A DNA stretch of 64,000 nucleotides from assembly GCA_016716905.1 (NCBI GenBank), contig JADJUS010000004.1:326249-390248 (forward strand), written 5' to 3'. Made by a program: the position numbers and the translations under genes. Positions 1,671 through 32,461 of this stretch are shown here, one piece after another. The first letter of the stretch is position 1. Every line of letters starts with the position of its first letter. The notes under the pieces were generated by a model that did no database searches, was not told the origin of the DNA, and worked only from the letters and a program-made list of their open reading frames with translations. Source of the DNA: Acidobacteriota bacterium (GTDB lineage Bacteria; Acidobacteriota; Vicinamibacteria; Vicinamibacterales; SCN-69-37).

Positions 1671-1693
1671 GGAACTGGGGAACTGGGGAACTG
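1670..1693. repeat. Tandem octamer GGGAACTG/GGGGAACT x3 between the M2 peptidase stop and the DinB start
   Basis: Read directly: gggaactggggaactggggaactg, immediately before ATGATG at 1694. Confidence 0.7.
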
Positions 1694-5095: not shown

Positions 5096-5138
5096 GGCAT
5101 TCCCCTTTGCAAGACGTGAGGGAATTCTAACGCAGGGC

Positions 5139-6380: not shown

Positions 6381-6456
6381 ACGACGGCCAGCCCGTGTTC
6401 ACCGGAGTCACAAGGGATGATGGGCTCCAGCTGAGGGGCCGATAGAATGAGTTGGG

Positions 6457-7317: not shown

Positions 7318-7326
7318 ACTCGGCGG

Positions 7327-7854: not shown

Positions 7855-7883
7855 TTCACTACCTCCGGGGGAGAGGCAAGGCC

Positions 7884-9359
7884 ATGTCCACACACACGCT
7901 GAGTTCTGCCGCTGCCGTCGCATTGAGCGGCGCCGTTGTTGCCACGATGTTCACGATCTCGCCCGTCAGCGCGCAGGCGCCGACGGCTGAACAGGCCCTG
8001 ATCACAAAAGCTCGTGGCATCCACGAGCGTGTGATCACGCTTGATACGCATGACGACATCAACGCGAACAACTTCCGCGCGGACTGCAACTACACGATGC
8101 GCCTGACGACACAGGTCAACCTGCCGAAGATGAAAGAGGGCGGGCTGGATGTGTCGTTCATGATTGTGTATGTCGGCCAGGGCGCGCTGACCGAGGAAGG
8201 GTATGCCGGCGCGTATCGACAGGCGGTGGAGAAGTTCGACGCCGTGCATCGCCTGACGAAGGAGATTGCCCCGAACGAGATCGAACTCGCGCTGACGCCT
8301 GCGGATGTGGTGCGCATCGCGAAGAGCGGCAAGAAGGTGGCCGTCATCGGGATCGAGAACGGTTACGCGATCGGCACCGACCTCGAGCGTGTGAAGGAGT
8401 TCTGGACACGCGGCGGCCGGTACATGTCATTGGCGCACAACGGCAACAGCCAGCTGGCTGATTCCAACAGCACCGAAGCGGCGAATGGCGGCATTCATGG
8501 CGGCTTGAGTCCTCTGGGCAAGCAGGTCATTGCCGAGATGAACAAGTGGGGGATCATGGTGGACATCTCCCATCCCTCCAAGCAGGCCAACATGCAGGCG
8601 ATTGCGTTGTCGAAGGCGCCCGTGATTGCGTCGCATTCTTCGACGCGCGCGCTCGCCAATCACACCCGCAATATGGACGACGAGCTGTTGCTCGCGCTCA
8701 AGAAGAATGGCGGCGTGATGCAGACCGTGGCGTTTGCCACCTACGTGAAGGTTGATGACAAGGCGGCCGACCGGCAGGCCGCGACCACCGCACTGAACAC
8801 CGAGTTTGGTATTGCCGCGCCCGCCGGACGGGGTGCTGGTGGCGGTGGCCGTGCAGGCGGCGCCGGCGGGGGACGTGCGGGTGGCGAAGGACGCGGGCAG
8901 GGGGCCACGCCGGCGGCACCGCCTCCCTGTTCGATCGAGGATCCGAACACGGGGACCGCACCGCAGGCGGCGCGTGGGGGCGGGGCCGGCCGTGGCGGCA
9001 ATCAGGCGGCCCTTGCCGCACTGACTCCGGAACGTCGCGCGGAGTACGACACGAAGCTGGCGGCCATTCAGGCCAAGTTCCCAGCACCGGCGCGGGCGAC
9101 GGTCTCGGATTTTGTGGACCACATCGACTATGCCGTGAAGCTCATCGGCGTCGATCACGTGGGCATTTCATCGGATTTTGATGGCGGGGGCGGGGTCACT
9201 GGCTGGAACAGCGCGGCGGAGACCTTCAATGTGACCCTGGAGTTGGTCCGCCGAGGCTACACCGAGGAACAGATTGGCAAGATGTGGAGCGGCAACCTGT
9301 TGCGGGTGTGGGCCGAGGTTGAAAAGGTAGCCAAACAGCTTCAGGCTGGGTCGAAATAG
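7884..9359 (+). CDS. Membrane dipeptidase (peptidase M19, renal dipeptidase family) with Gly/Arg-rich insertion
   Basis: TLDTHDD, AHNGNS, VDISH, ASHSS and SSDFDGG motifs. ATG 7884 is preceded by GGGGGAGAGG. Signal-like N-terminus. Confidence 0.85.
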   Translation: MSTHTLSSAAAVALSGAVVATMFTISPVSAQAPTAEQALITKARGIHERVITLDTHDDINANNFRADCNYTMRLTTQVNLPKMKEGGLDVSFMIVYVGQGALTEEGYAGAYRQAVEKFDAVHRLTKEIAPNEIELALTPADVVRIAKSGKKVAVIGIENGYAIGTDLERVKEFWTRGGRYMSLAHNGNSQLADSNSTEAANGGIHGGLSPLGKQVIAEMNKWGIMVDISHPSKQANMQAIALSKAPVIASHSSTRALANHTRNMDDELLLALKKNGGVMQTVAFATYVKVDDKAADRQAATTALNTEFGIAAPAGRGAGGGGRAGGAGGGRAGGEGRGQGATPAAPPPCSIEDPNTGTAPQAARGGGAGRGGNQAALAALTPERRAEYDTKLAAIQAKFPAPARATVSDFVDHIDYAVKLIGVDHVGISSDFDGGGGVTGWNSAAETFNVTLELVRRGYTEEQIGKMWSGNLLRVWAEVEKVAKQLQAGSK

Positions 9360-9413: not shown

Positions 9414-12047
9414 TCACTCCATCCCCAGCTTCTTCCGCTTCAAAAACAGGCCTTTTCTCGAAATCCCGAGCAATTTCGCCGCATCTGACACCCGGCCGCC
9501 GGTGTGTTCGATCGCCCGGGCGACAAACGCCCTTTCGATATGGGCGATGGCCTGGTCGAGGGGCTGGTCCAGTCGCACGCTGACGACCGGTCCGGCCGGA
9601 GCAGACTGAGCGGCCGGCCGCCTCGACCTCCACCCCTGAGCAATTTCCGCCGACAGGTCATCCGCACCAAGCGTCGCGCCATCGTCGGCAAGGGCGACCA
9701 CGCGCCGCACTTCGTTGGCGAGCTCCCGGATGTTGCCAGGCCAGTCATGGAGCAGAAGTGCGGCAATGAAGTCGTCGGCGACATTCAAGCGTTGCCGGCC
9801 GGCCTCTTCGCACGCTTTGCGGACAAAGAGCGCGGCAAGGGCGGGAATCTCGTCCTTGCGTTCGCGCAGGGGCGGCAGCCAGAGCGGCGCGACCCGCAGC
9901 CGATAGAACAGATCACTTCGGAAGCGGCCCTGGCTGACCAGTGCGTCGAGCGAGGCGTTCGTGGCCGCCACGATTCGCACGCGCGTGTGGGTGGGGCGGG
10001 GTTCGCCAACGACATGAATCTCGCCCGATTCCAGGAATCGCAGCAACTTTGGCTGGATGGCCGGATCCAGATCGCCGATCTCATCAAGAAACAACGTGCC
10101 ATGTTCGGCGGCGCGAAACACCCCTCCCGATGTTTCGAAGGCGCCGGTGAACGCGCCGCGGCGATGGCCGAAGAGCTGACTCTCCACCAGGTCCTTCGGG
10201 ATCGCTGACGCATTAAAAGGCACGAATGGGCCTCGCGACCATTTGCTATGGGTGTGGATGACCCTGGCCACCACTTCTTTTCCCGTTCCCGTTTCCCCCA
10301 TGATCAAGACGGGCAGTTCGCTCGAGGCCAGCTTGATCGCGACGCGCAGCACCTCCTGCATGCGCGGAGACCAGAACACGGAGTCGCCGCCGCTTGGGAG
10401 TGAGACCTGCGGCCAGAGGAGGTCTTCGTCGAGCACGTGTGGATCCCCGGAGCGGCTGATCCCCGCTTTCGCGATTTCGACAAGATTGCGAATCAGCGAG
10501 ACGTCTTCAAGGGCAAACACGTCACGGAAACGCAGCACTGCCCGCCGGTCGATGTCCGACAGGATGATCCGGTGCGTGCCGTCCGCAGCGGTCTCCCAGG
10601 CGACGGGGCCGCCGGTGGCCTCGTTGGCGGTTGTCTCGGTGGTCACGTCGAGCCGCGTGCGCAACGCGGTGGTGGAGACCACGGCTGCGAGGCGCTGGCT
10701 CATCACGTCAATGGAATGTCCGGCGCTGAGGGCGGTGGCGATGTCGGTCAGGATGAGATTCGTACTCTCGGTGTCGGTCTGATCCCGGCGTGCGGCGGGG
10801 AGCTCGGTCCTGTCGTGGGCCGGCAAGGCCTCGCGTTCCTTGGTGACCACCCATTCCTGAAACCGATGGGAGATGGCCTGGCACGCGCGAAGGGCCCGAT
10901 CGAAGTGCCTGTTTCCGCGCGCGGCGTCGCCTCGAAGCGTGAGGCACGTGCCGGTGGCGGCTTCGACGGTGATGAGGGGATCGACGGCACCTCTGGGACA
11001 CAATCGCAGCGCGGCGACCAGCGCTTTGTCGGCATCGTCGTGTTGACCGAGGAACGCCAGGGCGCGGGCTTTTGCGCTCAGGAGCGACGCGTGCCAGACG
11101 CGCAGCTGACGGCGTTCCAGTTCCGGGTGTGCGGCGTCGACGATGGTGACGATGCCTTCCCAGTCTCGAATGTGGCTGAGGTAGAGGCACCGGGTGATCT
11201 GATGGGCGAGGTCGTACCAGGATCGCGCCGGTACGTGTTGACGTCGAATGAGTGCCTCGGCTTCGTCGAGGTGAGCGACGCACTCAGGCAAGTTGCCTTC
11301 GTATAAGGCGACGTTGGCTAGGCTGTCGGCAAGGCCTAGCTGAACGAACGACATTTCGCCGCCGACTTGACCGGCCTGATTGAGGTAGTGACGCGCCTGC
11401 TTCGCGTTGCCAAGGTACAACGTGAACAGACCAATGTTGCCTAATGCTCGGGCGCGGGGGACTTGCTTGTCGTTCTGATTCGCCTCCTCAAAAGCTCTCA
11501 CTGCGGCGCGACGGGCTTGATCCACGCTACCGACATCTAGGAGAGGTGATGCGGAAACAAGTTCGATTGAGCACCTGAGGTCGCTTGATCCCGATTCCAC
11601 TGCAAGGCGCTTAGCGATGTCTAGGTGCAGCCGCGCGTCCGAACTTGAACCGCGAAGAGCTTCGATTCGCGCAACTGCGAGATGAAGCCCTGCGAGTGAC
11701 GATGCGTCTCCGATGGCAGTAGCGAGTTGCCGAAGGGTCGCCAGGCGCGATGCGGCGTCTGCAGGAGCCTGAAATGTGGACTCCCTCACGAAGAGCGAGA
11801 ACTCTGCGCCAAACCTTGCACTGTCCGGTTGGTCCCGGAGTTCCCCACATAAGTCTGAAAGCAGCCCGAGTGCCTTAACGACATCGCCGGTGTCATACAG
11901 CGCCGTGGCGTGAACCAGCCGGCCAGGGAAATCGGTTAATCCATCGCCCTCCACTGCGGCGATAGCCTCGGAGAGACGACCGTTCCGGTACAGGGACTGG
12001 GCCTGCTCCGTCGATGGCGACACACTGGCGAATGTGCGTCCGGGCAT
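9414..12047 (-). CDS. Sigma-54-dependent transcriptional activator (bEBP) with long N-terminal TPR-like sensor region, AAA+ core and C-terminal Fis-type HTH
   Basis: GETGTGKE Walker A, GAFTGA sigma-54 contact loop, GNIRELANEV, C-terminal AAKLLGISRKGLFLKRKKLG. No receiver domain. About 420 aa helical-repeat N-terminus. Confidence 0.9.
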   Translation of the reverse strand: MPGRTFASVSPSTEQAQSLYRNGRLSEAIAAVEGDGLTDFPGRLVHATALYDTGDVVKALGLLSDLCGELRDQPDSARFGAEFSLFVRESTFQAPADAASRLATLRQLATAIGDASSLAGLHLAVARIEALRGSSSDARLHLDIAKRLAVESGSSDLRCSIELVSASPLLDVGSVDQARRAAVRAFEEANQNDKQVPRARALGNIGLFTLYLGNAKQARHYLNQAGQVGGEMSFVQLGLADSLANVALYEGNLPECVAHLDEAEALIRRQHVPARSWYDLAHQITRCLYLSHIRDWEGIVTIVDAAHPELERRQLRVWHASLLSAKARALAFLGQHDDADKALVAALRLCPRGAVDPLITVEAATGTCLTLRGDAARGNRHFDRALRACQAISHRFQEWVVTKEREALPAHDRTELPAARRDQTDTESTNLILTDIATALSAGHSIDVMSQRLAAVVSTTALRTRLDVTTETTANEATGGPVAWETAADGTHRIILSDIDRRAVLRFRDVFALEDVSLIRNLVEIAKAGISRSGDPHVLDEDLLWPQVSLPSGGDSVFWSPRMQEVLRVAIKLASSELPVLIMGETGTGKEVVARVIHTHSKWSRGPFVPFNASAIPKDLVESQLFGHRRGAFTGAFETSGGVFRAAEHGTLFLDEIGDLDPAIQPKLLRFLESGEIHVVGEPRPTHTRVRIVAATNASLDALVSQGRFRSDLFYRLRVAPLWLPPLRERKDEIPALAALFVRKACEEAGRQRLNVADDFIAALLLHDWPGNIRELANEVRRVVALADDGATLGADDLSAEIAQGWRSRRPAAQSAPAGPVVSVRLDQPLDQAIAHIERAFVARAIEHTGGRVSDAAKLLGISRKGLFLKRKKLGME

Positions 12048-12066
12048 GATCGCGCGGACAATACCA

Positions 12067-12128
12067 GATTCGGCCCTGCTACGGGGTGCCCTCAGTGCGG
12101 CCCAAGCCGAATCATGTACAAGATTCGG
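12067..12128 (-). promoter_or_regulatory. Three-part alternative-pairing element between the HD-GYP stop and the activator start
   Basis: Minus-strand RNA reads CCGAATC-TTGTACAT-GATTCGG ...33 nt... CCGAATC. The middle arm can pair with either flanking arm. The last arm lies about 20 nt before the ATG at 12047. Confidence 0.35.
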
Positions 12129-12146
12129 TGGGGCCGGCGGCCAAGA

Positions 12147-14087
12147 CTAGTGGACCTGTCGACCGTCCCGTCGGCCGGCCAAATGATTCGCCAGCCCGTG
12201 TTCCTGCGGCAGAACTGAGCCCGGAGCGAACAGTAGCGCCGCGGATTCAAGCATCCGGCTGTGGTTTTTGTGAAATTCTTCGCCCGCGTACAGGGCAATC
12301 ACACCAACTACCTGGTCGCCATCGAAGACCGGGGTCGCCAGTGTAAAACGCAAAGGTACGGGCAGGACGCGGGCCACCGGTCCCAGGTCGAGGGCGGCGT
12401 CGGAGTTGAAGACGATCTGCCGATGGGCAAACGCCCAGCCGGAGATTCGCTCACCCACGGGAATTCTGGTTGATTCAATCGTCGACGAGCCGGAGCCGGC
12501 GCAATACACAGCCGTGAGATCGCCCTGGCCGGGCGACTGCGTATAGAAGGCCACCGCAGCGGCCGGCACCACGCGGCGCACATGACGGAAGAAGATCTCA
12601 GCCGCGGCCTCGAGCGACGGCGCCTTGGGCAACTCGCGCCGAAGTTCTCCAAACTCCCGTTCCTCGGCCGTCGCCGCGCTGATGACGTCCAGGGCCGAGT
12701 GCGCGAGGTGGCCCACCGCCGCGCCAGCGCCTGGGACGCTGCGGCCCTCCGCTTCATCGATGGCTTCAAGCCGGTCGAGGATCCGGAGGAATCCATCCAC
12801 GACCCAGGGGTCATACATGGTGCCCCTGCGGTCAATCAGGATGTGCTCAGCCTGCTGTCGGCTCATCCGCGGACGATAGGGGCGGTCGGAGGTGAGTGCG
12901 TCGTAACAGTCAACCACCGATAGAATCCTGGCGCCGAGCGGGATCTCCTGTCCCTTCAATCCATCGGGATATCCCTGGCCGTTCCAGTTCTCGTGGTGAT
13001 GCCTGACGATAGGTTCCACCGGGTACGGGAATTCGATGCTTTTGAGGATGTTTGCGCCGACGGCCGCGTGTTCCTTCATCTTCTCGAACTCGGCCGTGGT
13101 TAGCGGACCGGGTTTGTTGAGGATGTACTCGGGCACGGCCAGCTTTCCAGTGTCGTGCAGGAGGGCCGCCGCCTCGATAGCCTTGATCTGCCGATCATCG
13201 GTGACCCCGAGTGCGCGCGCGGTTTCCATCGTGTACTGCTGCACGCGCCGGATGTGACCGTGAGTGACCTGGTCCTTCGCATCAATGGCCATCGCGAACG
13301 CCGCGATCGTGGACATATGGACCTTCTCGATAGCGTCGATTTTTGCCTGCATTTCTTCGACCCTACTTGCGGAGTTCCGATACGTGAAGTAGAGCATCGT
13401 CATCAGCGGGAGGATGACGAGTATCCGTGCGAAGATGCCGTCTGGGGAAGCCAAGAGCGCTGCGATCGATGCGCCGGCGATATAAGTCAGAAATCCGTCT
13501 CGAATCCCCCACCAAGTGACTGCGAAGTCGCGCAACAGCCTTGTTCGGCTCTTTGATTGGGTCAGGGCAATCGCCATCGCGACGAGGCAGGAATTGACCA
13601 AGAAATACAAGATGGCAAAAATGGCCAAGCCGAAAACGAAGAGCGATGGATCGTCCTGTAGTTGCAGTGGAGGCGGTCCAGTAATCGAAAAAAGCGCCTT
13701 TGACGCCAGCCAGACAGAAAGTGGAGGCGCCGCCAAGTTAAACGGCGTTCGATTCCAGTCAAAACGGCCCTTCGAGTAGCAAATTGTGGCAGAAAGAACT
13801 ACCGCGTCGAGCAATACCAGCACCGTGCCCACTGCTGGGCCGTACACCAAGGTTCCCCAGATTACGAACGTCTCGGAGATTGAGTAACGGGCGCCCACGG
13901 ACTGAAACTTGACTGACAAGAACCCGCTGACCAAGGTCAGTAATGTCAACGACAGCCACTCGCTAGCGGGCGGGTCGACAATCACCTGGCGGATGTTAAT
14001 CGCCGATGTCAGGAATCCACTGACGACAACAGTCACCCAGAAGGCTCGGGCTGTCGCTGAAAAAGTTGGGCTAGTTGGCTTGGTCAT
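12147..14087 (-). CDS. Integral-membrane HD-GYP domain protein (putative c-di-GMP phosphodiesterase) with C-terminal GAF domain
   Basis: About 230 aa N-terminus with multiple hydrophobic helices. HGHIRRV...LHDTGK...HHENWNGQGYPDGL (HD-GYP). GAF-like C-terminus. Confidence 0.85.
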   Translation of the reverse strand: MTKPTSPTFSATARAFWVTVVVSGFLTSAINIRQVIVDPPASEWLSLTLLTLVSGFLSVKFQSVGARYSISETFVIWGTLVYGPAVGTVLVLLDAVVLSATICYSKGRFDWNRTPFNLAAPPLSVWLASKALFSITGPPPLQLQDDPSLFVFGLAIFAILYFLVNSCLVAMAIALTQSKSRTRLLRDFAVTWWGIRDGFLTYIAGASIAALLASPDGIFARILVILPLMTMLYFTYRNSASRVEEMQAKIDAIEKVHMSTIAAFAMAIDAKDQVTHGHIRRVQQYTMETARALGVTDDRQIKAIEAAALLHDTGKLAVPEYILNKPGPLTTAEFEKMKEHAAVGANILKSIEFPYPVEPIVRHHHENWNGQGYPDGLKGQEIPLGARILSVVDCYDALTSDRPYRPRMSRQQAEHILIDRRGTMYDPWVVDGFLRILDRLEAIDEAEGRSVPGAGAAVGHLAHSALDVISAATAEEREFGELRRELPKAPSLEAAAEIFFRHVRRVVPAAAVAFYTQSPGQGDLTAVYCAGSGSSTIESTRIPVGERISGWAFAHRQIVFNSDAALDLGPVARVLPVPLRFTLATPVFDGDQVVGVIALYAGEEFHKNHSRMLESAALLFAPGSVLPQEHGLANHLAGRRDGRQVH

Positions 14088-14143: not shown

Positions 14144-14173
14144 TCAGTCCAAGTGATGACCGTAAGAAATCAT
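14144..14173 (-). pseudogene. Mini-ORF P8, highly diverged copy (MISYGHHLD)
   Basis: ATG ATT TCT TAC GGT CAT CAC TTG GAC TGA. Same length and GAC TGA ending as P7, but the core is lost. Confidence 0.2.
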
Positions 14174-14205
14174 GGTTTCAAAAAGAATCGCGCTAAGCAG
14201 AGCAA

Positions 14206-14235
14206 TCAGTCCCAAACAACAATTGTGCAAGTCAT
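14206..14235 (-). CDS. Mini-ORF P7, peptide MTCTIVVWD
   Basis: ATG ACT TGC ACA ATT GTT GTT TGG GAC TGA. An in-frame ATG two codons upstream is also possible. Confidence 0.35.
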   Translation of the reverse strand: MTCTIVVWD

Positions 14236-14287
14236 AGTCATCCTTCGACAGGAACGAGCAAAAGGCGAGAACGTCAAGAAGGGCAAC

Positions 14288-14317
14288 TCAGCTCCAAACG
14301 ATAATTGTGCAAATCAT
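14288..14317 (-). CDS. Mini-ORF P6, peptide MICTIIVWS
   Basis: ATG ATT TGC ACA ATT ATC GTT TGG AGC TGA. 9-codon length retained. Confidence 0.4.
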   Translation of the reverse strand: MICTIIVWS

Positions 14318-14331
14318 GGCCGTCACTGCTT

Positions 14332-14388
14332 TCAAGCGATCAGTAGCGTTAACGAACTGTCAGCCCAAACGATAGTCGTGCGAATCAT
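14332..14388 (-). pseudogene. Mini-ORF P5, degenerate copy (MIRTTIVWADSSLTLLIA)
   Basis: ATG ATT CGC ACG ACT ATC GTT TGG GCT GAC... The stop at codon 10 is lost, so it reads on to TGA at 14332. Confidence 0.3.
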
Positions 14389-14427
14389 GTCGTCCTGCTT
14401 TCAGAGCTACTAGCGTTGGCGACCGTC

Positions 14428-14457
14428 TCAACCCCAAACGATAATTGTGCGAATCAT
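14428..14457 (-). CDS. Mini-ORF P4, peptide MIRTIIVWG
   Basis: Same 30 nt as P3, preceded by AGCAGGACACC. Confidence 0.55.
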   Translation of the reverse strand: MIRTIIVWG

Positions 14458-14496
14458 GGTGTCCTGCTTTCAGAGCTACTGGCGTTGGCGACCGTC

Positions 14497-14526
14497 TCAA
14501 CCCCAAACGATAATTGTGCGAATCAT
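14497..14526 (-). CDS. Mini-ORF P3, peptide MIRTIIVWG
   Basis: ATG ATT CGC ACA ATT ATC GTT TGG GGT TGA, preceded by AACAGGACACC. Confidence 0.55.
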   Translation of the reverse strand: MIRTIIVWG

Positions 14527-14565
14527 GGTGTCCTGTTTTCAGAGCTACTGGCGTTGGCGACCGTC

Positions 14566-14595
14566 TTAACCCCAAACGATGATTGTGCGAATCAT
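14566..14595 (-). CDS. Mini-ORF P2, peptide MIRTIIVWG
   Basis: ATG ATT CGC ACA ATC ATC GTT TGG GGT TAA, preceded by GGAAGCAGGACATC. Confidence 0.55.
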   Translation of the reverse strand: MIRTIIVWG

Positions 14596-14635
14596 GATGT
14601 CCTGCTTCCTAGAATCAAGGCCTTGAAGTGAGTCA

Positions 14636-14665
14636 CTAACCCCAAACAATAATCGTGCGGTTCAT
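14636..14665 (-). CDS. Mini-ORF P1, peptide MNRTIIVWG
   Basis: ATG AAC CGC ACG ATT ATT GTT TGG GGT TAG. The ATG overlaps the protease TGA (cgATGAac). Confidence 0.55.
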   Translation of the reverse strand: MNRTIIVWG

Positions 14666-16506
14666 CGCTGGCCTCCACTGGTGACGTCGGCTTGGATTGC
14701 GTTGTCCCACACCAAGGTGTTGTCCCAAACCAAAGTGTTATCCCAGACCAAGGTGTTGTCCCAGACGAGCGTGTTGTCCCAGACCAACGTCTCGCCCCAG
14801 ACTCGGTTGTCCCAGACCAAGGTGTTATCCCAGACAAGCGTGTTGTCCCAGACCAAGGTGTTGTCCCAAACCAAGGTGTTGTCCCAGACCAAGGTGTTGT
14901 CCCAGACCAGGGTGTTGTCCCAGACCAAGGTGTTGTCCCAGACCAGCGTGTTATCCCAGACCAGGGTGTTGTCCCAAACGAGAGTCGTTCCCCACGTCGA
15001 CTGTTGGCCGAAGGCCATTCCGCCGCCGAAGGATTGTTCGCCGCCGATCGTGTTCGACGTCTGCACCTTGTCGCCGTCCTCGCGCATGGCAAACTTCACG
15101 GCCAGGGCGACGTTGATCGACCCGGCGCCTTGCGAGATGAGTCCCTCGCCCGGGATGAACTGCGCCGTGAGCTGCAGCGCCGTCTTCACCTGACGCGGAG
15201 TCAGATCCTCATTCGCCTGCAGCAACATTGCCGCCGCGCCGCTCACCACCGCCGCAGCCATGCTCGACCCCGACAGCACCAGGTAGGCCCCGCCGTTCGC
15301 GCCGGTCACACGACGCTCCGGCAGCATCTCCCACAGCAGGCTCCGCTTCGAAATGGTCGACACAATCGCATTGCCCGGCGCCACCACGTCCGGCTTCAAC
15401 AGCGTGTTCTTCGGCAGATCCTGGGGCGTGGCAGGCGCCGGCGTGCCCGGGTCCACAACGGGACCACGCGAGCTGTACGTCGCGACCTTGTCGTCACTCC
15501 GGAACACCGTGCCGTTGGTGTTCAACGCGCCCACCGTCAGCGCACCAGGCGTGAAGCCGGGCGACACAATGGCGCCGACAATCGGCACACCCGCCGCGTT
15601 CTTGCCCATGTTGCCGGCCGATGCCACCACCACAATGCCCGCGGCCACGGCGCGCTCCACCGCGAGCGCCAGCGGATCGTCGCGATACGCTTCCGATGCC
15701 GGGTGACCCAGCGAGAGGTTGATAACTCTGATGTCGAGGCGATAGCGGTATTTGATGCAGTAGTCGATCGCCTCGATCACGTCCGACACATACCCCGAAC
15801 CATCGTCGCTCAGCACTTTCATGCTGATGAGCGACACGCCCGGCGCCATGCCGATATACGGCGTGCCCTCTGCACTGCGGCTGCCGGCGCCGCTGCCCGC
15901 AATCGTGCCCGCCACGTGCGTGCCGTGGCCGTAGCCGTCGCGACCGCCTTCGCGCACGCCGCCCCGCGGGTCCGTGAAGTCGTACGACACCTGCAGGCGA
16001 TTATTCAGGTCCCCATGCGACGACACGCCGGAGTCCAGCACCGCGACGCCCACTCTCCGGCCGGTGATGCCGCCAAACGCCGAACCCGATTCGCCGCGCC
16101 ACACCTGGTCGGCGCCTGTGGCCTGCGGCGTGATGGCCATGGTGCTGTAAATCGGCCGGTCTTCCTCGATGAACTTCACGCCAGGGTCGGAAGACAGCGA
16201 GTTGACCTCGGTCGACGTCCCGTAAAACACCGCACCCGACGCCATCCGCTTGACCCGCATTTTGTGCGTCCGCTCAAGGCGGTCCACTTCGTCCTGGGGC
16301 GCCGTCACGATGACCGGAATCTGCCTGCCGTCGTCGGGCTTTGCCAGCTTCTGCGACAACTCGCGCGACATCCGGGCTCGCTGGCCGTCAGCGGCCATCG
16401 CGATGGACGGAAGGGCAAGTCCGACGACGAGAGCGAAGCCCAGGAGGGCGACCCAGACGTGTGACAGGCGATTGGGCGTGTTGTGTGCGTTCATAAAAGC
16501 ATTCAT
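14662..16506 (-). CDS. Secreted subtilisin-like serine protease (peptidase S8) with C-terminal (TLVWDN)15 repeat domain
   Basis: Signal/TM segment WVALLGFALVVGLALPSIAMA. Catalytic triad contexts VLDSGV, HGTHVAGTIAG and SGSSMAAAVVSGAAAML. 614 aa. Confidence 0.92.
   Translation of the reverse strand: MNAFMNAHNTPNRLSHVWVALLGFALVVGLALPSIAMAADGQRARMSRELSQKLAKPDDGRQIPVIVTAPQDEVDRLERTHKMRVKRMASGAVFYGTSTEVNSLSSDPGVKFIEEDRPIYSTMAITPQATGADQVWRGESGSAFGGITGRRVGVAVLDSGVSSHGDLNNRLQVSYDFTDPRGGVREGGRDGYGHGTHVAGTIAGSGAGSRSAEGTPYIGMAPGVSLISMKVLSDDGSGYVSDVIEAIDYCIKYRYRLDIRVINLSLGHPASEAYRDDPLALAVERAVAAGIVVVASAGNMGKNAAGVPIVGAIVSPGFTPGALTVGALNTNGTVFRSDDKVATYSSRGPVVDPGTPAPATPQDLPKNTLLKPDVVAPGNAIVSTISKRSLLWEMLPERRVTGANGGAYLVLSGSSMAAAVVSGAAAMLLQANEDLTPRQVKTALQLTAQFIPGEGLISQGAGSINVALAVKFAMREDGDKVQTSNTIGGEQSFGGGMAFGQQSTWGTTLVWDNTLVWDNTLVWDNTLVWDNTLVWDNTLVWDNTLVWDNTLVWDNTLVWDNTLVWDNRVWGETLVWDNTLVWDNTLVWDNTLVWDNTLVWDNAIQADVTSGGQR
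14701..14985 (-). repeat. In-frame 18-bp tandem repeat encoding TLVWDN x10, RVWGE, then TLVWDN x5
   Basis: 15 units have identical peptide sequence but at least 9 different nucleotide versions (Thr ACC/ACT/ACG, Leu TTG/CTC/CTT/CTG, Val GTG/GTT/GTC, Asp GAC/GAT). Confidence 0.95.
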
Positions 16507-16557
16507 TCGAAAACGGGGCGAAGACCACCGTGGGCTTGCCGCTGAACCCCGCTCGTA

Positions 16558-16573
16558 CGCACATACCGTACCA
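16558..16573 (-). promoter_or_regulatory. Candidate sigma-54 (-24/-12) promoter for the S8 protease operon
   Basis: Minus strand TGGTACGGTATGTGCG versus consensus TGGCACG-N4-TTGCW. GG and GC have the correct 10-nt spacing. About 52 nt lie between the -12 element and the ATG at 16506. Confidence 0.5.
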
Positions 16574-16606
16574 CCGACGCGCTATAGAGATAACTAGATG
16601 GGGATG

Positions 16607-16629
16607 AAAAAACCGGCCGAAAAGGCCGG
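16607..16629 (-). terminator. Rho-independent-terminator-like hairpin on the minus strand, upstream of the sigma-54 promoter
   Basis: Minus strand CCGGCC-TTTTC-GGCCGG followed by TTTTTT. No annotated minus-strand gene lies upstream of it. Confidence 0.5.
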
Positions 16630-16660
16630 ATCTCCGTACACTCCTTATTGGCATGCGATC

Positions 16661-16683
16661 CTGACGCATTACAAAATCGTCAG
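16661..16683. promoter_or_regulatory. Inverted repeat CTGACG-N11-CGTCAG, candidate activator-binding site (UAS)
   Basis: Perfect 6-bp arms about 90-110 bp upstream of the -24 element, inside the A/T-rich divergent intergenic region. Confidence 0.35.
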
Positions 16684-16818
16684 CCAAACCGCAAAAATGT
16701 GTAATTTGTGAGTGTAAGGTCTTCAGGGGAGGGCGACCCCTAAGTCCCATAATTGCCTCATAATACGCCCCATCTGCGTTGGCCGAATGACACTTTTGGA
16801 CCCGATTTTAGGAGCGTT

Positions 16819-18549
16819 ATGACCCCCTCCCGTATCCTGCGCCTGGCCCTGCTGATAGCACTAGGTGTGGCGGTGGTCATGTTTGCCCGGCAGTGTGGTA
16901 CCCCACAATCCGGGGCCGATACGGCGCCTCAAACCGGCGGCAAATTGGTGGCCAGTTACCGCACAGAACCCACCCATTTCAACCGTCTCGTGGAGGCGCG
17001 GCCGGGGGCTCGTCTGACGGCGTTACTCACGCAGGCCACCCTGCTCCGCGTGGACCCGAACACAGCAGAGTTGGTGCCGCGCCTTGCCACAGAGTGGACC
17101 GGAACACCCGACGGATTGACGTGGACGATCACCCTTCGCAGTGGCGTACGTTTTTCCGACGGCACGGCCTTCACCGCGTCGGATGTGTTGTTCACATTCC
17201 AGGCGATCTACGACGACCGCGTGAAGAGTCCTCTGGCGCAGGACATGCGCGCCAAAGGCCAGCCCTTCCAGCTGCGCGCCATCGACGATCACCACATCGT
17301 GCTCACCTTCCCCTCCCCGTTCGGACAAGGCCTGGCCATTCTCGATAGCGTGCCTATCCTGCCTCGCCACAAACTCCAGGCAGCGTTTGATGCCGGTACG
17401 TTCCGCGACGCCTGGAGCCCGAGCTCGAATCTCTCGGAGATGGCTGGTCTGGGCCCGTTCATCCTCAAGGAGTACGTGCCTGCGCAGCACCTGCGATTTG
17501 TCAGGAACCCCAACTTCTGGCGCACGGACGCCACTGGACAGAAGCTGCCGTATCTCGACGAACTCGAGGTGCAGATTGTGCCCGAACAAAATGCCGAACT
17601 CCTGCGCCTGCAGTCGGGCACGACAGATCTCACCAACGGCGGTGCGCGCGCGGAAGACCTCGCCATGCTGCGCGATGCGGAAACCGCCGGCCGCGTCAGG
17701 CTCGTTGATGCCGGCCCCGCGATAGACGTCAGCACACTCTGGTTCAATCTCACTCCAGGTTCGAAGGCCGTCGCTGACAAACCCTGGCTGGCGCAGGAGG
17801 CATTTCGCCGTGCGATCTCACACGCGGTGAACCGGCAGGCCATCGTTGACACCGTGCATCTGGGCGCCGCGGTGGTGGTGTATGGCCCGGTGTCACCGGG
17901 CCATGGCGACTGGTTCGTGCCCGATCTTGGAGCCACGCCGTTTGACCTCGCTCGCGCGCTCACGCTCCTCACGTCGATCGGTCTGCAGGATCGCAACGGC
18001 GACGGCGTGCTTGACGACGCGTCCAATCGGCCCGTCGAGTTTTCGCTCTTCACGCAGAGTGGACACACCGAGCGCGAACGCACGAGCACACTCGTGGGCG
18101 AACAGTTGCGCCAGGTCGGCATCAAGGTGAATGTGGTCCCGATGGATCAGCGGGTCGTACAGGCGCGGTTCGGGAGTGGCGACTACGAAGCGATCTACTA
18201 CGGCGCGCAGGCCAGCTCAAAAGACCCGACCAGCAACCGTGGGTTCTGGTTAAGCAATGGCCCCATGCACTTCTGGAACCCCAATCAGCTGACGCCGGGC
18301 TCGGAGTGGGAAGGCCGCATCGACGCGCTCCTGCAGCAGGTGGCCGAGACGATGGACCCTGCCGAACGAAAGCGGCTGTTCACCGAGGCGCAGCAACTCC
18401 TCGCCGACCATGTGCCGGCGCTGTGGTTTGCGGCGCCGCATGTGTCCGTGCCGATGAGTGCGCGGGTGGGCGGAGCGAGGCCAACAGTCATCCAGCCGCC
18501 GGTGTTGTGGAACGCGGAAGAACTGTTCGTCCTGGGTCCGCGTCGGTGA
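16819..18549 (+). CDS. ABC transporter substrate-binding protein, family 5 (Opp/Dpp peptide-binding type)
   Basis: AGGAG 5 nt before ATG 16819. Signal/anchor RILRLALLIALGVAVVMFA. SBP_bac_5-like sequence (LVPRLATEWT..DGLTWTITLR.GVRFSDG). Confidence 0.85.
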   Translation: MTPSRILRLALLIALGVAVVMFARQCGTPQSGADTAPQTGGKLVASYRTEPTHFNRLVEARPGARLTALLTQATLLRVDPNTAELVPRLATEWTGTPDGLTWTITLRSGVRFSDGTAFTASDVLFTFQAIYDDRVKSPLAQDMRAKGQPFQLRAIDDHHIVLTFPSPFGQGLAILDSVPILPRHKLQAAFDAGTFRDAWSPSSNLSEMAGLGPFILKEYVPAQHLRFVRNPNFWRTDATGQKLPYLDELEVQIVPEQNAELLRLQSGTTDLTNGGARAEDLAMLRDAETAGRVRLVDAGPAIDVSTLWFNLTPGSKAVADKPWLAQEAFRRAISHAVNRQAIVDTVHLGAAVVVYGPVSPGHGDWFVPDLGATPFDLARALTLLTSIGLQDRNGDGVLDDASNRPVEFSLFTQSGHTERERTSTLVGEQLRQVGIKVNVVPMDQRVVQARFGSGDYEAIYYGAQASSKDPTSNRGFWLSNGPMHFWNPNQLTPGSEWEGRIDALLQQVAETMDPAERKRLFTEAQQLLADHVPALWFAAPHVSVPMSARVGGARPTVIQPPVLWNAEELFVLGPRR

Positions 18550-19466: not shown

Positions 19467-20455
19467 TTCGCCGCGCTGCAGGCGCCGTGTTGCTCGCCAT
19501 CGTGCTGATGGCGACGGCCGCGCCGTGGATTTCGTCCAACCGTCCCGATCTGCCGTTTGACGATCGCGCGTACGCGCCGCCCATGCGCGTGCATCTGCGC
19601 GATGCCGCCGGGTGGCACGCGCCGTTTGTCTACCAGCAGCGTCTCGTCCATCGCATCAACCGCACGTATGTCGACGATCACACGGCCCGCGTGCCGCTGC
19701 GATGGTTTGCGAACGGTCACCTCGTGTCGATCGATCCCGGCGCCGGCCCGTTGCTCTGGTGCGGCGCAGACGCACTGGGCCGCGATCTGTGTGCCCGACT
19801 CGTGTACGGCGCCAGGTTGTCGCTTGGTGTTGCCGCGCTTGGCGCATTCGGGGCGTTGCTGCTCGGCGCGTTGCTCGGCGCCGTGGCTGGATCCTCCGGT
19901 GGCCGCCTCGACACACTCATCACAACAGTGGCCGATTTCGTGCTGGTTCTTCCCGTCGTGTACCTCGTGATCGTGCTGCGCGCCACGCGCCCCCTCGTCA
20001 TCAGCCCGGCTGAAATGTTCTGGCTCATGACGATCCTGTTCGCGCTTGCGGCCTGGCCCGACGTCGCCCGAGGGGTGCGCGCGATCGTCGCCACCGAGCG
20101 TACGCGCGATTATGCCGCCGCCGCACGCGCCCTTGGCGCCGGGCCCTGGCGAGTGATGACCCACCTGTTACCGGCCGCCTACGGATTTCTGCGCATCGAG
20201 TTTGTCCTGCTCATCCCGGCACTTCTCGTGGCCGAGTCCACGCTTTCATTCGTTGGCTTTGGATTCGGAGGGGCGACGCCCAGCTGGGGCGGACTGCTGA
20301 AGGACGGCGAAGCGTTGACGGCCATGTACTCGGCGCCATGGCTCCTGCTGCCGGCCGCCGCACTCTTTGTCGTCGTGCTCGCGCTCCAAACGGTGGCAGG
20401 CGGAAGGCCCGGTTTCCCCGCATCGATCGTTGACACAACGGCCGCGCGCCGATAG
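19463..20455 (+). CDS. ABC transporter permease (OppC/DppC type)
   Basis: Start overlaps the previous stop. LGADALGRDLCARLVYGARLSL motif typical of OppC. TM-rich. Confidence 0.8.
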   Translation: MIRRAAGAVLLAIVLMATAAPWISSNRPDLPFDDRAYAPPMRVHLRDAAGWHAPFVYQQRLVHRINRTYVDDHTARVPLRWFANGHLVSIDPGAGPLLWCGADALGRDLCARLVYGARLSLGVAALGAFGALLLGALLGAVAGSSGGRLDTLITTVADFVLVLPVVYLVIVLRATRPLVISPAEMFWLMTILFALAAWPDVARGVRAIVATERTRDYAAAARALGAGPWRVMTHLLPAAYGFLRIEFVLLIPALLVAESTLSFVGFGFGGATPSWGGLLKDGEALTAMYSAPWLLLPAAALFVVVLALQTVAGGRPGFPASIVDTTAARR

Positions 20456-20480
20456 CCTCCGGAAGGACGATGAAGATCCG

Positions 20481-21365
20481 ATGAATCTCAGTGGCGTATT
20501 TCCCCCGGTGCCGACACCGTTTGATTCGGCGACCGGCGAATTCACACCGGCGGCCCTGACAGCCAACATCAACCGGTTGCTGCGCGCACCGGTGGCCGGC
20601 GTACTCGTGCTCGGCTCGAATGGCGAAGCCGGCCTGCTCGATGAGACTGAGGCCGATCGTGTCGTCGCTGCCGCCCGCGCAGTCGTGCCGGCCGGCCGCA
20701 CGCTGCTGGTGGGCGCCGGGCGCGAGTCCACACGCGCCACGATCGCGGCGTGCGTCCGCGCTGCGGGCAATGGCGCGGACAGCGTGCTCGTTCGTGCGCC
20801 GTCGTTTTTTAAGGCGCAGATGACGCACGAGGCGCTCGTCACGCACTACCGCGCGGTGGCCGACGCCTCACCGGTGCCCGTGATGCTCTACAACGTGCCC
20901 GGCATGGCAGGCTTCAGCCTCACGGTGCCCATGGTGCGCACGCTGGCCGCACACGCGAACGTGATCGGGATCAAGGAAACCAGCAACGACCTGGAACGCC
21001 TCGGCCAGTTCGCGGCGATCACCGACAGCGGTTTCGACGTGCTGGTGGGCTGGGCGCCGGTGGCACACAGCGCGGCCGTGGCGGGTGCGCGCGGTGCCAT
21101 CATTGCCGTGGCCAACGTGCTGCCTGACGTGTGCACGCAACTGTGGTCCCTGGCCACGGCGGGCCGGCACGCCGAGGCACTTGTGCTGCAACGCCGTATC
21201 ACCACCATCGCACAGCTGGTGTCGAGCGTGCATGGTGTGGCCGGTCTCAAGTGCGCGCTCGATCTGGTGGGCGCGTATGGCGGGCCCGTGCGCGCCCCGC
21301 TCCTGCCGGTGACCGCGGCCGTGGCCGAGGACATCCGCTCGGCGCTTGCTCCATGGCAAGCGTGA
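20481..21365 (+). CDS. DapA/DHDPS-family aldolase, HOGA1-like (putative 4-hydroxy-2-oxoglutarate aldolase)
   Basis: GVFPPVPTPF, LGSNGEA (GSNGE rather than the GTTGE of DapA proper), and Schiff-base Lys context IGIKETS. Confidence 0.7.
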   Translation: MNLSGVFPPVPTPFDSATGEFTPAALTANINRLLRAPVAGVLVLGSNGEAGLLDETEADRVVAAARAVVPAGRTLLVGAGRESTRATIAACVRAAGNGADSVLVRAPSFFKAQMTHEALVTHYRAVADASPVPVMLYNVPGMAGFSLTVPMVRTLAAHANVIGIKETSNDLERLGQFAAITDSGFDVLVGWAPVAHSAAVAGARGAIIAVANVLPDVCTQLWSLATAGRHAEALVLQRRITTIAQLVSSVHGVAGLKCALDLVGAYGGPVRAPLLPVTAAVAEDIRSALAPWQA

Positions 21366-21387
21366 GACACACGCGAAGAATGTGACC

Positions 21388-22503
21388 ATGCCAAAATCCG
21401 CTCTGCCCACCACTCCACGGCTCCTCATGGGACCCGGTCCATCTCCCGTGTCGGATCGCGTGATGCAGGCCATGGCCGCACCTCCGCGATCACACCTCGA
21501 CCCGGAGTTTGTTCTCCTGCTCGACGATGTCCGCGCCCGGCTGACGACGCTGTTTCAGGCGCCGGCGGATCACTTCTCATTCGCACTCTCGGGCACCGGC
21601 ACCACGGGCATGGATGCCGCCGCCGCGAATCTGCTTGAGCCCGGCATGATGGTGCTCTGCGTCGTCAACGGCTATTTCGGCGATCGGCTGGCGCAGGTGT
21701 GCGCGCTCCATGGCGCATTTGTCGAGCGGCTCCAGGGCGAGTGGGGACAGGCGATTGATCCCGCGCAGGTTGAGCGGGCGATGAGCGACGGGCGCTTCGA
21801 CGTGGTGGCCGTCGTCCATGGGGAAACATCCACTGGTGTGCTCAATCCGGTGGGGGACATCGCCGCGATCGCGCAACAACACGATGCCCTGCTGATCGTT
21901 GATGCCGTGACGTCGCTCGGGACGGTCCCGGTGGATGTGACGTCGTGGAACGCGGACGCGTGTTATTCCTGTTCGCAGAAAGGGATTGGCGCCCCGTCGG
22001 GCCTGGCGCCGATCACGTTCTCGGCGCGCGCGCGCCAGGGGCGCGCAGACACCACGCCGTTTTCACTCGATGTTCAGAAGCTTGAGGACTTCTGGGTCCG
22101 GCGCAAGTATCACCACACGATTTCCGCGCCGATGATTTATGCCCTGCACGCCGCCCTCGCCGAGGCTGCTGAAGAGGGCCTTGAGGCGCGCTGGAAGCGG
22201 CATGCGGACGCGCACGCCGCGCTGATCTCGGGACTGGACGCCATCGGCCTTCGCCTGCTTCCGGCTCCCGCCCATCGCCTCCCAAGCCTGAACACCGTTT
22301 GTGTGCCCGACGGCGTGGACGCGGCCGAGGTGAAGGACCGCATGCTGACCAAGCACCAGATCGAAATTGGTGCCGGACTCGGGCCGCTCGCGGGCAAGGT
22401 CTGGCGAATCGGGTTGATGGGAAGCGGCGCCACCATCCACAATGTGGAGAAGGTGGTGACGGCGCTCGCAAAGTCGCTTGGCCGCACACCTCCCCGGAGG
22501 TAG
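21388..22503 (+). CDS. Class V aminotransferase (alanine-glyoxylate / serine-pyruvate aminotransferase type)
   Basis: LLMGPGPSPV N-terminus. PLP-lysine context CSQKGIGAPSGLAPITFS. Confidence 0.8.
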   Translation: MPKSALPTTPRLLMGPGPSPVSDRVMQAMAAPPRSHLDPEFVLLLDDVRARLTTLFQAPADHFSFALSGTGTTGMDAAAANLLEPGMMVLCVVNGYFGDRLAQVCALHGAFVERLQGEWGQAIDPAQVERAMSDGRFDVVAVVHGETSTGVLNPVGDIAAIAQQHDALLIVDAVTSLGTVPVDVTSWNADACYSCSQKGIGAPSGLAPITFSARARQGRADTTPFSLDVQKLEDFWVRRKYHHTISAPMIYALHAALAEAAEEGLEARWKRHADAHAALISGLDAIGLRLLPAPAHRLPSLNTVCVPDGVDAAEVKDRMLTKHQIEIGAGLGPLAGKVWRIGLMGSGATIHNVEKVVTALAKSLGRTPPRR

Positions 22504-22507
22504 GCGC

Positions 22508-23935
22508 ATGGTTCGTCGATATGGGCTCGTGGTTGTCGCCGTTGTCGCGATGGCCTGTGTCACCAATCCCGCCACCGGCCGCAGCCAGCTGAACATGCTG
22601 TCCGAAGCCCAGGAGATCGCCCTGGGACGCGAGGCCGATCAGCAAGTTCGTGCCGAGATGGGGGTCTACGACGACGCGGGTTGGCAAGCCTACGTCACGC
22701 GTGTGGGTATGGCGATGGCAAAAAAATCGCATCGCCCAAACCTGCCATGGTCGTTTGTCGTCGTGGACGCCTCGGCGGTCAATGCGTTTGCGTTGCCGGG
22801 CGGGTTCATCTACGTCACGCGTGGCATCCTGCCGTTTCTGCAGAGTGAAGCGGAACTGGCGAATGTGTTGGGGCATGAGATTGCACACGTCACGGCACTA
22901 CATGGCGCCAGTGCGTACTCCAAACAACAGCTCAGCGGTATTGGGCTCGGTGTCGGGCGGATCCTTGCGCCCGAGCGGTACCAGGTGCTGTTCGGCGTGG
23001 CTGAGGCTTCGCTGAGCTTGTTGTATCTCAAACATGGCCGTGCCGCGGAGATTGAAGCCGATCGCCTCGGCGTGGGCTACGCCTCGTCCAGCGGTTGGGA
23101 TCCGGCGGGGATGGTCGGTCTCCTCAGCACGCTCGGCCGACTGTCGGAGGCCTCGGGTTCGAGTCGCGGCGTGCCGAACTTCCTCACCACGCATCCGTTG
23201 CCTGCCGATCGCATCGAGTCCGTGAAAGCGCTGGTGACTGCCGCCCAGGGACCGGGCGCACAGACGATCAATGCGGCCGAGTTCAGTGGACGGTTGCCTG
23301 GCGTGGTGTGGGGTGACAGCCGCGAACAGGGAATCGTGCGCGGACGCGAGTTCGTGCATCCCATCCTGCGGATCGCCCTTCGATTCCCCGACGGCTGGGA
23401 GATCAGCAATGGGGCCTCGCAGGTTACGGCGCAGCCTGCGGGCGAGGCGCAGGCGGCAGTGGTGCTGCGAGTGGTGCCGAACGCCACCGGTGGGCCAGCA
23501 CAGACGGCGCGGGCCCAGATGGCGGCCGCGAAGCTCACCGAAGTCAGTGGCGGCGAAACCACCATCAACGGCCAGCGTGCCTATGTTGGCACCTATCGCG
23601 GTGAGCAGGAGGTGGTGCGCGCGGCGTTCATCGTCGCTGGGTCAACAACGTACTTGGTGGCCGGCGTCGCCACCACCCAGGCGTTTGGCAGTGCGCAGGG
23701 CACATTCGCGAACACGATCGAATCGTTCCGGACGATGACGCAGGCAGAGGCGGATCAGATCCAGCCCTTCCGCGTCGGCCAGTACACCGTGCGATCGGGC
23801 GACACGTGGTCGTCGCTCGCCGCCGCAGCGGCGCCGCGGCCGATTGGCCCGGCCACACTCGCGATCATGAACGGCGCCACGGCCGCGTCCACGCCGCCCG
23901 TTAATGCACGCATCCGCGTCGTGGTCGGCGGCTGA
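22508..23935 (+). CDS. M48-family zinc metallopeptidase lipoprotein with C-terminal LysM domain
   Basis: Lipobox-like VVAMAC. HEIAHV (HEXXH). C-terminal YTVRSGDTWSSLA LysM-like segment. Confidence 0.8.
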   Translation: MVRRYGLVVVAVVAMACVTNPATGRSQLNMLSEAQEIALGREADQQVRAEMGVYDDAGWQAYVTRVGMAMAKKSHRPNLPWSFVVVDASAVNAFALPGGFIYVTRGILPFLQSEAELANVLGHEIAHVTALHGASAYSKQQLSGIGLGVGRILAPERYQVLFGVAEASLSLLYLKHGRAAEIEADRLGVGYASSSGWDPAGMVGLLSTLGRLSEASGSSRGVPNFLTTHPLPADRIESVKALVTAAQGPGAQTINAAEFSGRLPGVVWGDSREQGIVRGREFVHPILRIALRFPDGWEISNGASQVTAQPAGEAQAAVVLRVVPNATGGPAQTARAQMAAAKLTEVSGGETTINGQRAYVGTYRGEQEVVRAAFIVAGSTTYLVAGVATTQAFGSAQGTFANTIESFRTMTQAEADQIQPFRVGQYTVRSGDTWSSLAAAAAPRPIGPATLAIMNGATAASTPPVNARIRVVVGG

Positions 23936-32344: not shown

Positions 32345-32461
32345 CGCCAGACTGGCAGAATTCGTGTTCCTGAATTGTATGGATAAGTCTTTCTATTTGA
32401 AGACTTTAGGTGGCTTCGTGCCCTGTCAACCGGAGTTGGCAGTGAGATTGCTATAGGAAGG

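Follow-up and report, generated by a model that had tools for sequence, protein, structure and literature searches.

A sigma-54 promoter very probably stands before an operon of uncultured Acidobacteriota which combines a secreted protease, minute peptides, an HD-GYP protein and a transcription activator. We describe it in a stretch of 64,000 nucleotides (henceforth the window) of contig JADJUS010000004.1 from an Acidobacteriota bacterium (assembly GCA_016716905.1). Its GC content is 64%, and the best matches of its proteins belong to metagenome-assembled genomes (MAGs) of Vicinamibacterales and other Acidobacteriota. The motif in question lies at 16573..16558. We take it to be real because it is conserved before the same operon, made of protease, mini-peptides, HD-GYP protein and activator, in some 30 relatives. 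As a whole, we hold it likely that transcription starts near 16547 and that the promoter is opened, from a conserved element placed upstream, by the bacterial enhancer-binding protein (bEBP) that the operon itself encodes. The features at stake are the following, with ORF standing for open reading frame and HTH for helix-turn-helix:

16558..16573, minus strand: sigma-54 -24/-12 element TGGTACGGTATGTGCG, recognized by sequence match and orthologue conservation
16547, minus strand: predicted transcription start, +/-2 nt, placed by the standard geometry in which the C of GC is -12
14662..16506, minus strand: S8 (subtilase) protease, secreted, first gene of the operon (Pfam Peptidase_S8, E = 6e-49)
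14144..14665, minus strand: array of 8 mini-ORFs, with a repeat period of 69 bp and AGGA before most of them
12147..14087, minus strand: membrane HD-GYP-type phosphodiesterase with a C-terminal GAF domain (Pfam HD_5, HD, GAF_2)
9414..12047, minus strand: bEBP of 877 residues, made of a TPR solenoid, a small alpha/beta domain, a sigma-54 AAA+ domain with GAFTGA and a Fis-type HTH (Sigma54_activat, AAA_lid_14, HTH_8)

The element TGGTACGGTATGTGCG belongs to the intergenic region 16507..16818, which separates the protease gene from a divergent transporter operon, and it is oriented as the protease gene is. Its GG occupies 16572/16571 (-25/-24) and its GC 16560/16559 (-13/-12), with 10 nt between them. 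An initial annotation, made from the letters of the window, had proposed a minus-strand motif with GG and GC at the correct spacing, about 52 nt before the protease ATG and with one mismatch in each half. Place and spacing are as it said, with 51 nt between the motif and ATG 16506. Its count of mismatches holds for the -24 half (one, against TGGCACG), while the -12 half has two (GTGCG against TTGCW). A further in-frame ATG, at 16494, fits the N-termini of the orthologous proteases better; the predicted 5′ untranslated region extends over about 41 nt to ATG 16506 and 53 nt to ATG 16494. A scan for sigma-70 promoters returned no candidate on the protease strand, and one weak candidate on the plus strand, overlapping a palindrome that is discussed below.

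Boxes recognized by sigma-54 have the form TGGCAC-N5-TTGC (PMC12316311), and TGGTAC variants of the -24 box do occur among 720 validated promoters, with 16 string matches versus 236 for TGGCAC (PMC12316311). We scored the window with a position weight matrix (PWM), an approximation written from the published consensus and not a published matrix. With it, TGGTACGGTATGTGCG reaches 10.7 bits, compared with 18.7 for the consensus. The initial annotation had suggested comparing the site with random GC-rich sequence, and on score alone the site barely stands apart from it, as it ranks 17th of about 128,000 positions. The relaxed pattern TGGYAY-N6-YGC likewise gives 10 matches in the window against 6.65 expected. 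Neither the motif nor the palindrome upstream of it exceeds chance in the window; the evidence for the promoter is its conservation in other genomes.

Orthologous loci were gathered without use of the motif, by three routes: protease homology in GTDB species genomes (MAGs), contigs that code for the protease's closest homologues in the databases, and metagenome contigs retrieved via the N-terminal TPR domain of the bEBP. This gave 32 loci with the same order of S8 gene, mini-ORFs (where present) and HD-GYP gene and with enough upstream DNA, their proteases being 42–89% identical to that of the window. The HD-GYP gene directly follows the S8 gene and mini-ORFs where the contig is long enough, and the gene for the TPR-bEBP is present in every locus whose contig extends that far. 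The hosts amount to about 30 related uncultured soil Acidobacteria.

A GG-N10-GC site is found 46–81 nt before the S8 start in 31 of these 32 loci, and it is this recurrence of the -24/-12 footprint that bears out the sigma-54 reading of the initial annotation. All 29 unique promoters have T-26, G-25, G-24, A-22, G-13 and C-12, and 28 of them have T-14; the choice is between T and C at -23, and between C and T at -21. The information content is close to nil on either side of -26..-10, at -27 as well as from -9 on, and the DNA around the promoter cannot be aligned between clades. Divergent lineages have a new spacer and keep both boxes as TGG[TC]A[CT] and [TC]GC; their variants are TGGTACGTAATCTGCG, TGGTACAGGATCTGCG, TGGCATGTGAAGTGCC and TGGCATACGACGTGCC. 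Across the orthologs the site is massively enriched at this position: in the same loci PWM matches of at least 9 bits occur at 0.18 per kb, that is, about 0.009 expected per interval of 50 nt, and 28 of the 54 matches to TGGTAC-N6-YGC in 2.05 Mb (both strands) fall at this one position.

The same comparison brings up another way to understand the block. In L001, L002 and L097 the site is GGTACGGTACC, a perfect 5-1-5 palindrome, and T, A and C at -18 to -16 are conserved beyond what sigma-54 contacts explain. The conserved TGGTACGGTAC block might then be the palindromic operator GGTAC-N-GTACC of a conventional dimeric regulator, and its match to sigma-54 a coincidence. We deem this extremely improbable. 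The second half of the palindrome is lost elsewhere: it reads GTATG in the window, GTACA or GTACG in most loci, and TAATC, GGATC, TGAAG or CGACG in others. Yet TGC at -14..-12, which lies outside the palindrome, is retained (G and C in 29 of 29, T in 28), as is T-26. A distant clade has TGGCAC-N5-GTGCC in the same role, and a bEBP accompanies the site wherever the contig reaches far enough. Conserved boxes with changed spacers are what fits sigma-54 rather than a palindromic operator, and the spacer variants among orthologs led us to reject the operator.

The distant clade just mentioned deserves a few words. Its protease/HD-GYP module has the TGGCAC-N5-GTGCC site before a small HTH gene, itself followed by the S8 gene; sigma-54 control therefore looks ancestral to the module. 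The site lies about 250–350 nt upstream of the S8 genes, and the HTH gene inserted between the two codes for 70–97 residues (containing GRSVSIEQAAQLLGVSRRTVYYRIRDGRL) in L005, L007, L011, L012, L014, L021 and L064. A database homologue, P0053, has this small HTH domain (PF12728) fused to the protease.

A second conserved sequence is found upstream of the promoter:

16668..16683, minus strand: conserved upstream element (site 1), CTGACGATTTTGTAAT, recognized by conservation and phasing
16689..16704, minus strand: weaker conserved block (possible site 2), TTACACATTTTTGCGG, with core CA-N4-TG and its centre about 20 bp upstream of site 1
16661..16666, minus strand: CGTCAG, right arm of the palindrome of the initial annotation, not conserved

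The family consensus of the 16-bp element is CTGACGRWTYYGTAAK. It contains an imperfect dyad, TKACGRA|TYCGTAA, matched at 5–6 of 7 positions in most loci and at 4 of 7 in the window. The element is specific to its place: with at most one mismatch we find 19 matches, every one of them on the promoter strand between -125 and -80, and the rest of the 592 kb has none on either strand; with at most two mismatches the window has a single match. The distance between its first base and the T of the -24 TGG falls into classes, -107..-111 in 17 unique loci, -98/-99 in seven and -88 in one. These offsets change in steps of about 10 bp, approximately one helical turn, and four lineages or more have separately come to the shorter spacings. 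In the window, about 128 nt lie between the centre of the element and the predicted start, and about 118 or 108 bp in the shorter-spaced lineages. Binding sites of bEBPs lie about 100–150 bp upstream of the promoter (PMC7057263), a range inside which the element of the window falls. The HTH recognition region of the operon's activator is itself conserved (see below), for which a conserved binding site is to be expected. From sequence, then, 16683..16668 is the probable upstream activating site of the TPR-AAA+-HTH activator. Block 16689..16704 is weaker, its CA and TG columns having 0.7–1.4 bits when 31 unique sequences are aligned on site 1, and is suggestive of a second activator site. Finally, the DNA just before the -24 box is relatively A/T-rich over 40 bp across orthologs (0.55–0.63, against about 0.4–0.5 nearby), which is compatible with DNA bending.

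It was in this region that the initial annotation had noticed the inverted repeat CTGACG-N11-CGTCAG, proposed as the activating site. The repeat does exist, at 16683..16661, 88–110 nt upstream of TGG, and the place was well chosen; the unit was not, the conserved part being the 16-bp element, which corresponds to the left arm of the repeat plus its 'spacer', and not the 6-11-6 repeat. One might still suppose that, the promoter being real, the palindrome itself works as a symmetric 6-11-6 operator for the activator in this genome: the repeat is perfect, its distance is suitable and its left arm is conserved. That would be quite improbable in our opinion. No other locus, L088, L090 and L092 included, has the right arm at the homologous position; gtccgaag stands there in L088 and gctccagg in L090, the closest relatives, whose operon proteins are 81–91% identical to those of the window, whereas the activator shows no change in its DNA-binding helix. 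The conserved unit, CTGACGRWTYYGTAAK, has an internal dyad of its own. Besides, repeats of this size are common: perfect inverted repeats with arms of 6 nt and a spacer of 0–20 nt occur at 1.09 per 100 bp of the window, and 304 bp of the intergenic region contain two of them against 3.3 expected.

Sequences resembling half-sites of the upstream element are also present directly 3′ of the -12 GC, where many orthologs have T[GTA]ACG or CGTAA. A strict half-site pattern is found there in 11 of 30 loci, compared with a background of 4.7%, and the window has GTACGAG (16545..16558, minus strand). Either the protein that binds the element or a second regulator may make contact with the DNA here, close to the promoter.

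The upstream element is not alone in its intergenic region, and we must consider the gene on the other side:

16819..18549, plus strand: family-5 (Opp/Dpp-type) solute-binding protein (SBP), divergent gene (Pfam SBP_bac_5; start verified)

The SBP gene (ATG 16819) is preceded by AGGAG, and two permease genes also run on the plus strand. It is present in most orthologous loci, as judged from Pfam, gene calls and ORF sizes. The element could therefore serve the transporter promoter too, or instead. Nearly every locus has kept a divergent ORF of about 575–600 residues (SBP_bac_5 where gene-called) that starts about 240 nt from TGG; on the opposite strand, a conserved CATAAT follows the element at a distance of about 90 bp; and the two loci without the transporter, L086 and L124, match the element poorly. 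That the element belongs to this divergent SBP/permease operon, or to a regulator encoded elsewhere, and not to the protease promoter, we consider unlikely, if less so than the other alternatives. The shift of the element-to-promoter distance by about 10 bp at a time, in at least four lineages, is what looping on one face of the helix predicts. Its orientation relative to the sigma-54 promoter is fixed; a bEBP enhancer would fit its location, its dyad and the possible second site some 20 bp from it; and L086 and L124 make a separate clade whose promoter diverged too. As to the transporter, its operon probably has a sigma-70-type promoter with CATAAT (16759..16764, plus strand, about 55 nt before the SBP ATG) as the -10 box. 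The hexamer is included in a block, gggcgtattatg on the minus strand, kept in the window, L088, L090, L092, L001, L002 and L131.

Between element and promoter, the window has one more conspicuous feature, which the initial annotation had left out:

16607..16629, minus strand: terminator-like hairpin CCGGCC-TTTTC-GGCCGG followed by T6, between site 1 and the promoter

With its all-GC stem of 6 bp and its loop of 5 nt, followed by T6, the hairpin folds at -15.4 kcal/mol (z = -2.4). Were it a working intrinsic terminator, it could end a small upstream transcript or shield the promoter from read-through. We find this improbable. No gene or recognizable promoter lies upstream on its strand, and an Rfam scan of the whole window at gathering thresholds gave no family, in the hairpin region or anywhere else, so that no riboswitch or small RNA accounts for the intergenic region. 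In L088 the homologous stretch folds at -6.1 kcal/mol (z = -0.35), in L090 the hairpin is a different one and has no T-tail, and conservation fails in L092 as well, although the flanks can be aligned in all three. Terminator-like sites are as frequent in the window as in shuffled sequence, no more, and a T-run is in keeping with the 40 bp before the -24 box being A/T-rich in general across orthologs. Because the hairpin is lost in these relatives and no upstream transcription unit exists on its strand, we rejected a conserved terminator, and we take the structure for an incidental one, or at most a peculiarity of this genome.

As to the activator, the initial annotation had credited the cluster with a bEBP of its own, with an intact GAFTGA loop that would close a regulatory circuit; the 877-residue protein encoded at 12047..9414 does read GHRRGAFTGA, and since the operon always carries the same family of GAFTGA bEBPs, the circuit is plausible. 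GAFTGA is conserved in 47 members of the family. The HTH recognition region (SRKGLFLKR) is invariant in seven orthologs and at least 90% conserved in the 47 members. The N-terminal 550 residues are predicted with confidence (pLDDT 85.8, pTM 0.81) to form a solenoid of about 21 helices, of TPR type and spanning residues 10–407 or so, and then a small alpha/beta domain. Contigs of the samples Ga0138256 and Ga0163153 match the N-terminal domain of this bEBP with 100% and 86% identity. The structural neighbours of the solenoid are TPR proteins generally, eukaryotic ones scoring equally well. The bacterial neighbours comprise domain III of MalT (1hz4) and Rap proteins with pheromone peptides (4gyo, 8rtc, 8rsv), with target-normalized TM-scores of 0.6–0.7. 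Sequence-profile matches of the N-terminus to NprR are not significant (E ~0.08). The resemblance of this predicted fold to Rap and MalT is a lead about the signal that the TPR sensor might perceive, not evidence. In two metagenome loci, L095 and L096, bEBP orthologs with a TPR domain 44% identical have no S8 or HD-GYP gene upstream, which tells us that the family is not always tied to the protease operon. There, TGGTAC-N7-TGC, with a spacing off the consensus, lies about 190 nt before the activator gene.

What the sequences show directly is their anatomy, their conservation, the spacings and the gene order; that the promoter depends on sigma-54, where transcription starts, which protein binds the element and whether the genes are co-transcribed is inferred. 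The process might unfold as follows. RNA polymerase bound to sigma-54 would sit on 16573..16558 as a closed complex. The TPR-bEBP would bind CTGACGATTTTGTAAT (16683..16668), and possibly also the weaker block 16704..16689; upon sensing its ligand it would oligomerize, loop the DNA to the promoter and open it at the expense of ATP. Transcription of the minus strand would begin near 16547 and cover the S8 gene, the mini-ORF array and the HD-GYP/GAF gene. It would probably extend into the bEBP gene, because we found no intrinsic terminator in the gaps from the S8 gene to the bEBP gene. If it does, the activator would amplify its own synthesis, a case of positive autoregulation.

Several points speak against this account. 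The score of TGGTACGGTATGTGCG is unremarkable in a window with 64% GC. Its -12 box, GTGCG, has neither the usual T at -15 nor A/T at -11. No rpoN gene is present within the 64 kb of the window. One locus, L084, has no correctly spaced site but a TGGTAA..GGGCT stretch with a spacing of 11 nt; its sequence comes from a long-read assembly full of frameshifts. The conservation of TAC at -18 to -16 goes beyond the needs of sigma-54 recognition, for which reason something else may also read the promoter DNA. The element shares its intergenic region with a conserved divergent transporter operon, and the two orthologs devoid of the transporter match it poorly. In this genome a strong hairpin with T6 separates the element from the promoter. 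The start near 16547 is a predicted one, and binding of the bEBP to the element is likewise a prediction.

What the operon encodes is unusual. The eight mini-ORFs of the window have the products MNRTIIVWG, MIRTIIVWG (three copies), MIRTTIVWADSSLTLLIA, MICTIIVWS, MTCTIVVWD and MISYGHHLD. In 27 of 30 unique orthologous loci, the S8 and HD-GYP genes have between them mini-ORFs of 7–11 residues that end in [IV][ILV][IV]W[SGT]. The peptides, as seen across L001–L006 and L082–L131, include MIRTIIVWG, MLVRAIIVWS and MVASIIIWS, most of them preceded by a Shine-Dalgarno sequence. The number of copies varies, from eight in the window to five in L088, and more distant relatives have mini-ORFs of the MKLIIWGE type. 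None of these peptides has an export signal. The protease, for its part, ends in every ortholog with 7–23 tandem hexapeptides T[ILM][IV]W[GDS][NS]; in the window its C-terminus has about 20 TLVWDN repeats, 15 of them exact copies of the unit, at 14662..15000 (minus strand). The core of these repeats, centred on tryptophan, resembles the C-termini of the mini-ORF peptides, and this suggests a functional link.

It is tempting to go further and to see in the promoter the output node of an undescribed autoinduction circuit based on peptide sensing, in which the TPR solenoid of the bEBP would bind short hydrophobic peptides ending in ..I-I-V-W-[SG]. Its ligands would be the 7–11-residue products directly translated from the mini-ORFs, or else T[ILM][IV]W[GD][NS] units cut from the protease repeats and imported back by the Opp-type SBP and the permeases. 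Peptide binding would then switch on the sigma-54 promoter, yielding more protease, more peptide, more of the HD-GYP phosphodiesterase acting on cyclic di-GMP (c-di-GMP) and more activator. We offer this as a speculation that is rather unlikely to be correct. If true, it would amount to an RRNPP-like quorum or nutrient sensing coupled to sigma-54 and c-di-GMP in Acidobacteria.

Other parts of the window bear on the use of sigma-54. Its two best PWM matches are near-canonical intergenic sites: TGGCAGTGAGATTGCT (32437..32452, plus strand) lies 10–25 nt before lpxC (32462..33376), and TGGCAGTATTGTTGCA (59811..59826, minus strand) about 50 nt before a PEGA-domain ORF with ATG at 59760 and AGGAG upstream. 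A second sigma-54 activator, of the response-regulator (NtrC) type, adjoins a gene for a PAS histidine kinase (47578..50224, minus strand), and the presence of this second bEBP is indirect evidence that the genome uses sigma-54. All eight Acidobacteriota genomes analysed in PMC12316311 carry one rpoN; all are Terriglobia, not Vicinamibacteria. We also tried TGGTATTGTCCGCGC, at 12066..12052, as a promoter for the bEBP gene; it is too close to the bEBP ATG for that and we treated it as due to chance. The gap 12047..12147 (minus strand), between the HD-GYP and bEBP genes, contains a perfect inverted repeat with arms of 7 nt, CCGAATC-N8-GATTCGG, and a third CCGAATC about 40 nt beyond, just upstream of the activator ATG; these repeats could serve as a regulatory site inside the operon or form a hairpin in the RNA.

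Around the operon, genes for peptidases and peptide use abound at 27..9359 and 20367..23935: peptidase M2 (similar to angiotensin-converting enzyme), S9, M19 dipeptidase and M48. Genes of the dihydrodipicolinate synthase family and of the class-V aminotransferases lie downstream of the permease genes. The gene order is kept in relatives (L081–L087). The ABC transporter operon has no ATPase gene.

What this brings is a well-supported cis-regulatory map, with promoter, probable enhancer and helical phasing, for an uncultured lineage of the Vicinamibacterales type. It ties together, as one unit controlled by sigma-54 and a bEBP, an unusual and widely conserved set of genes. It also makes the function of the mini-ORFs and of the repeats testable, and the promoter with its element could be used as a reporter for the signal sensed by the TPR domain. 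In the searchable literature we found no description of this promoter, of this operon or of sigma-54 regulation in this lineage; looking for sigma-54 in Vicinamibacter, peptide sensing by TPR-bEBPs and HD-GYP proteins with subtilisin in Acidobacteria returned nothing relevant.

How does this compare with known systems? With reference to its possible signal, the operon recalls the RRNPP receptors (Rap, NprR, PlcR) and MalT. The N-terminus of the bEBP is a predicted TPR superhelix, a similarity generic to TPR solenoids that leaves peptide binding here a hypothesis, and its neighbourhood brings together, as in RRNPP systems, short peptide genes, a secreted protease and an Opp-type binding protein. 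Two differences are clear: the output is a sigma-54 AAA+ activator and not an HTH repressor or activator or a phosphatase, and the mini-ORF peptides have no export signal.

As a promoter, it belongs with those that sigma-54 shares with a cognate bEBP: glnAp2 with NtrC, nifH with NifA, pspA with PspF, Pu with XylR. In common with these it has GG and GC 10 nt apart at -24/-12, a conserved dyad-like site about 100–150 bp upstream (PMC7057263), an activator with AAA+, GAFTGA and Fis-type HTH encoded beside its target, and an A/T-rich stretch between enhancer and promoter. It differs from them by its -24 box, TGGTAC (a minority variant) instead of TGGCAC, and by its -12 box, RTGCG instead of TTGCW. 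To our knowledge, the upstream element CTGACGRWTYYGTAAK is also unlike the sites of NtrC or NifA. The sensor is a TPR solenoid of about 400 residues, not a receiver, GAF, PAS or V4R domain, and the genes controlled are those of a repeat-bearing protease, mini-ORFs and an HD-GYP protein. The architecture is thus the standard, textbook one of an enhancer-dependent sigma-54 promoter, with lineage-specific boxes, a new enhancer sequence and an uncommon sensor domain; what is unusual is the cargo of the operon and its possible peptide signal, not the type of promoter.

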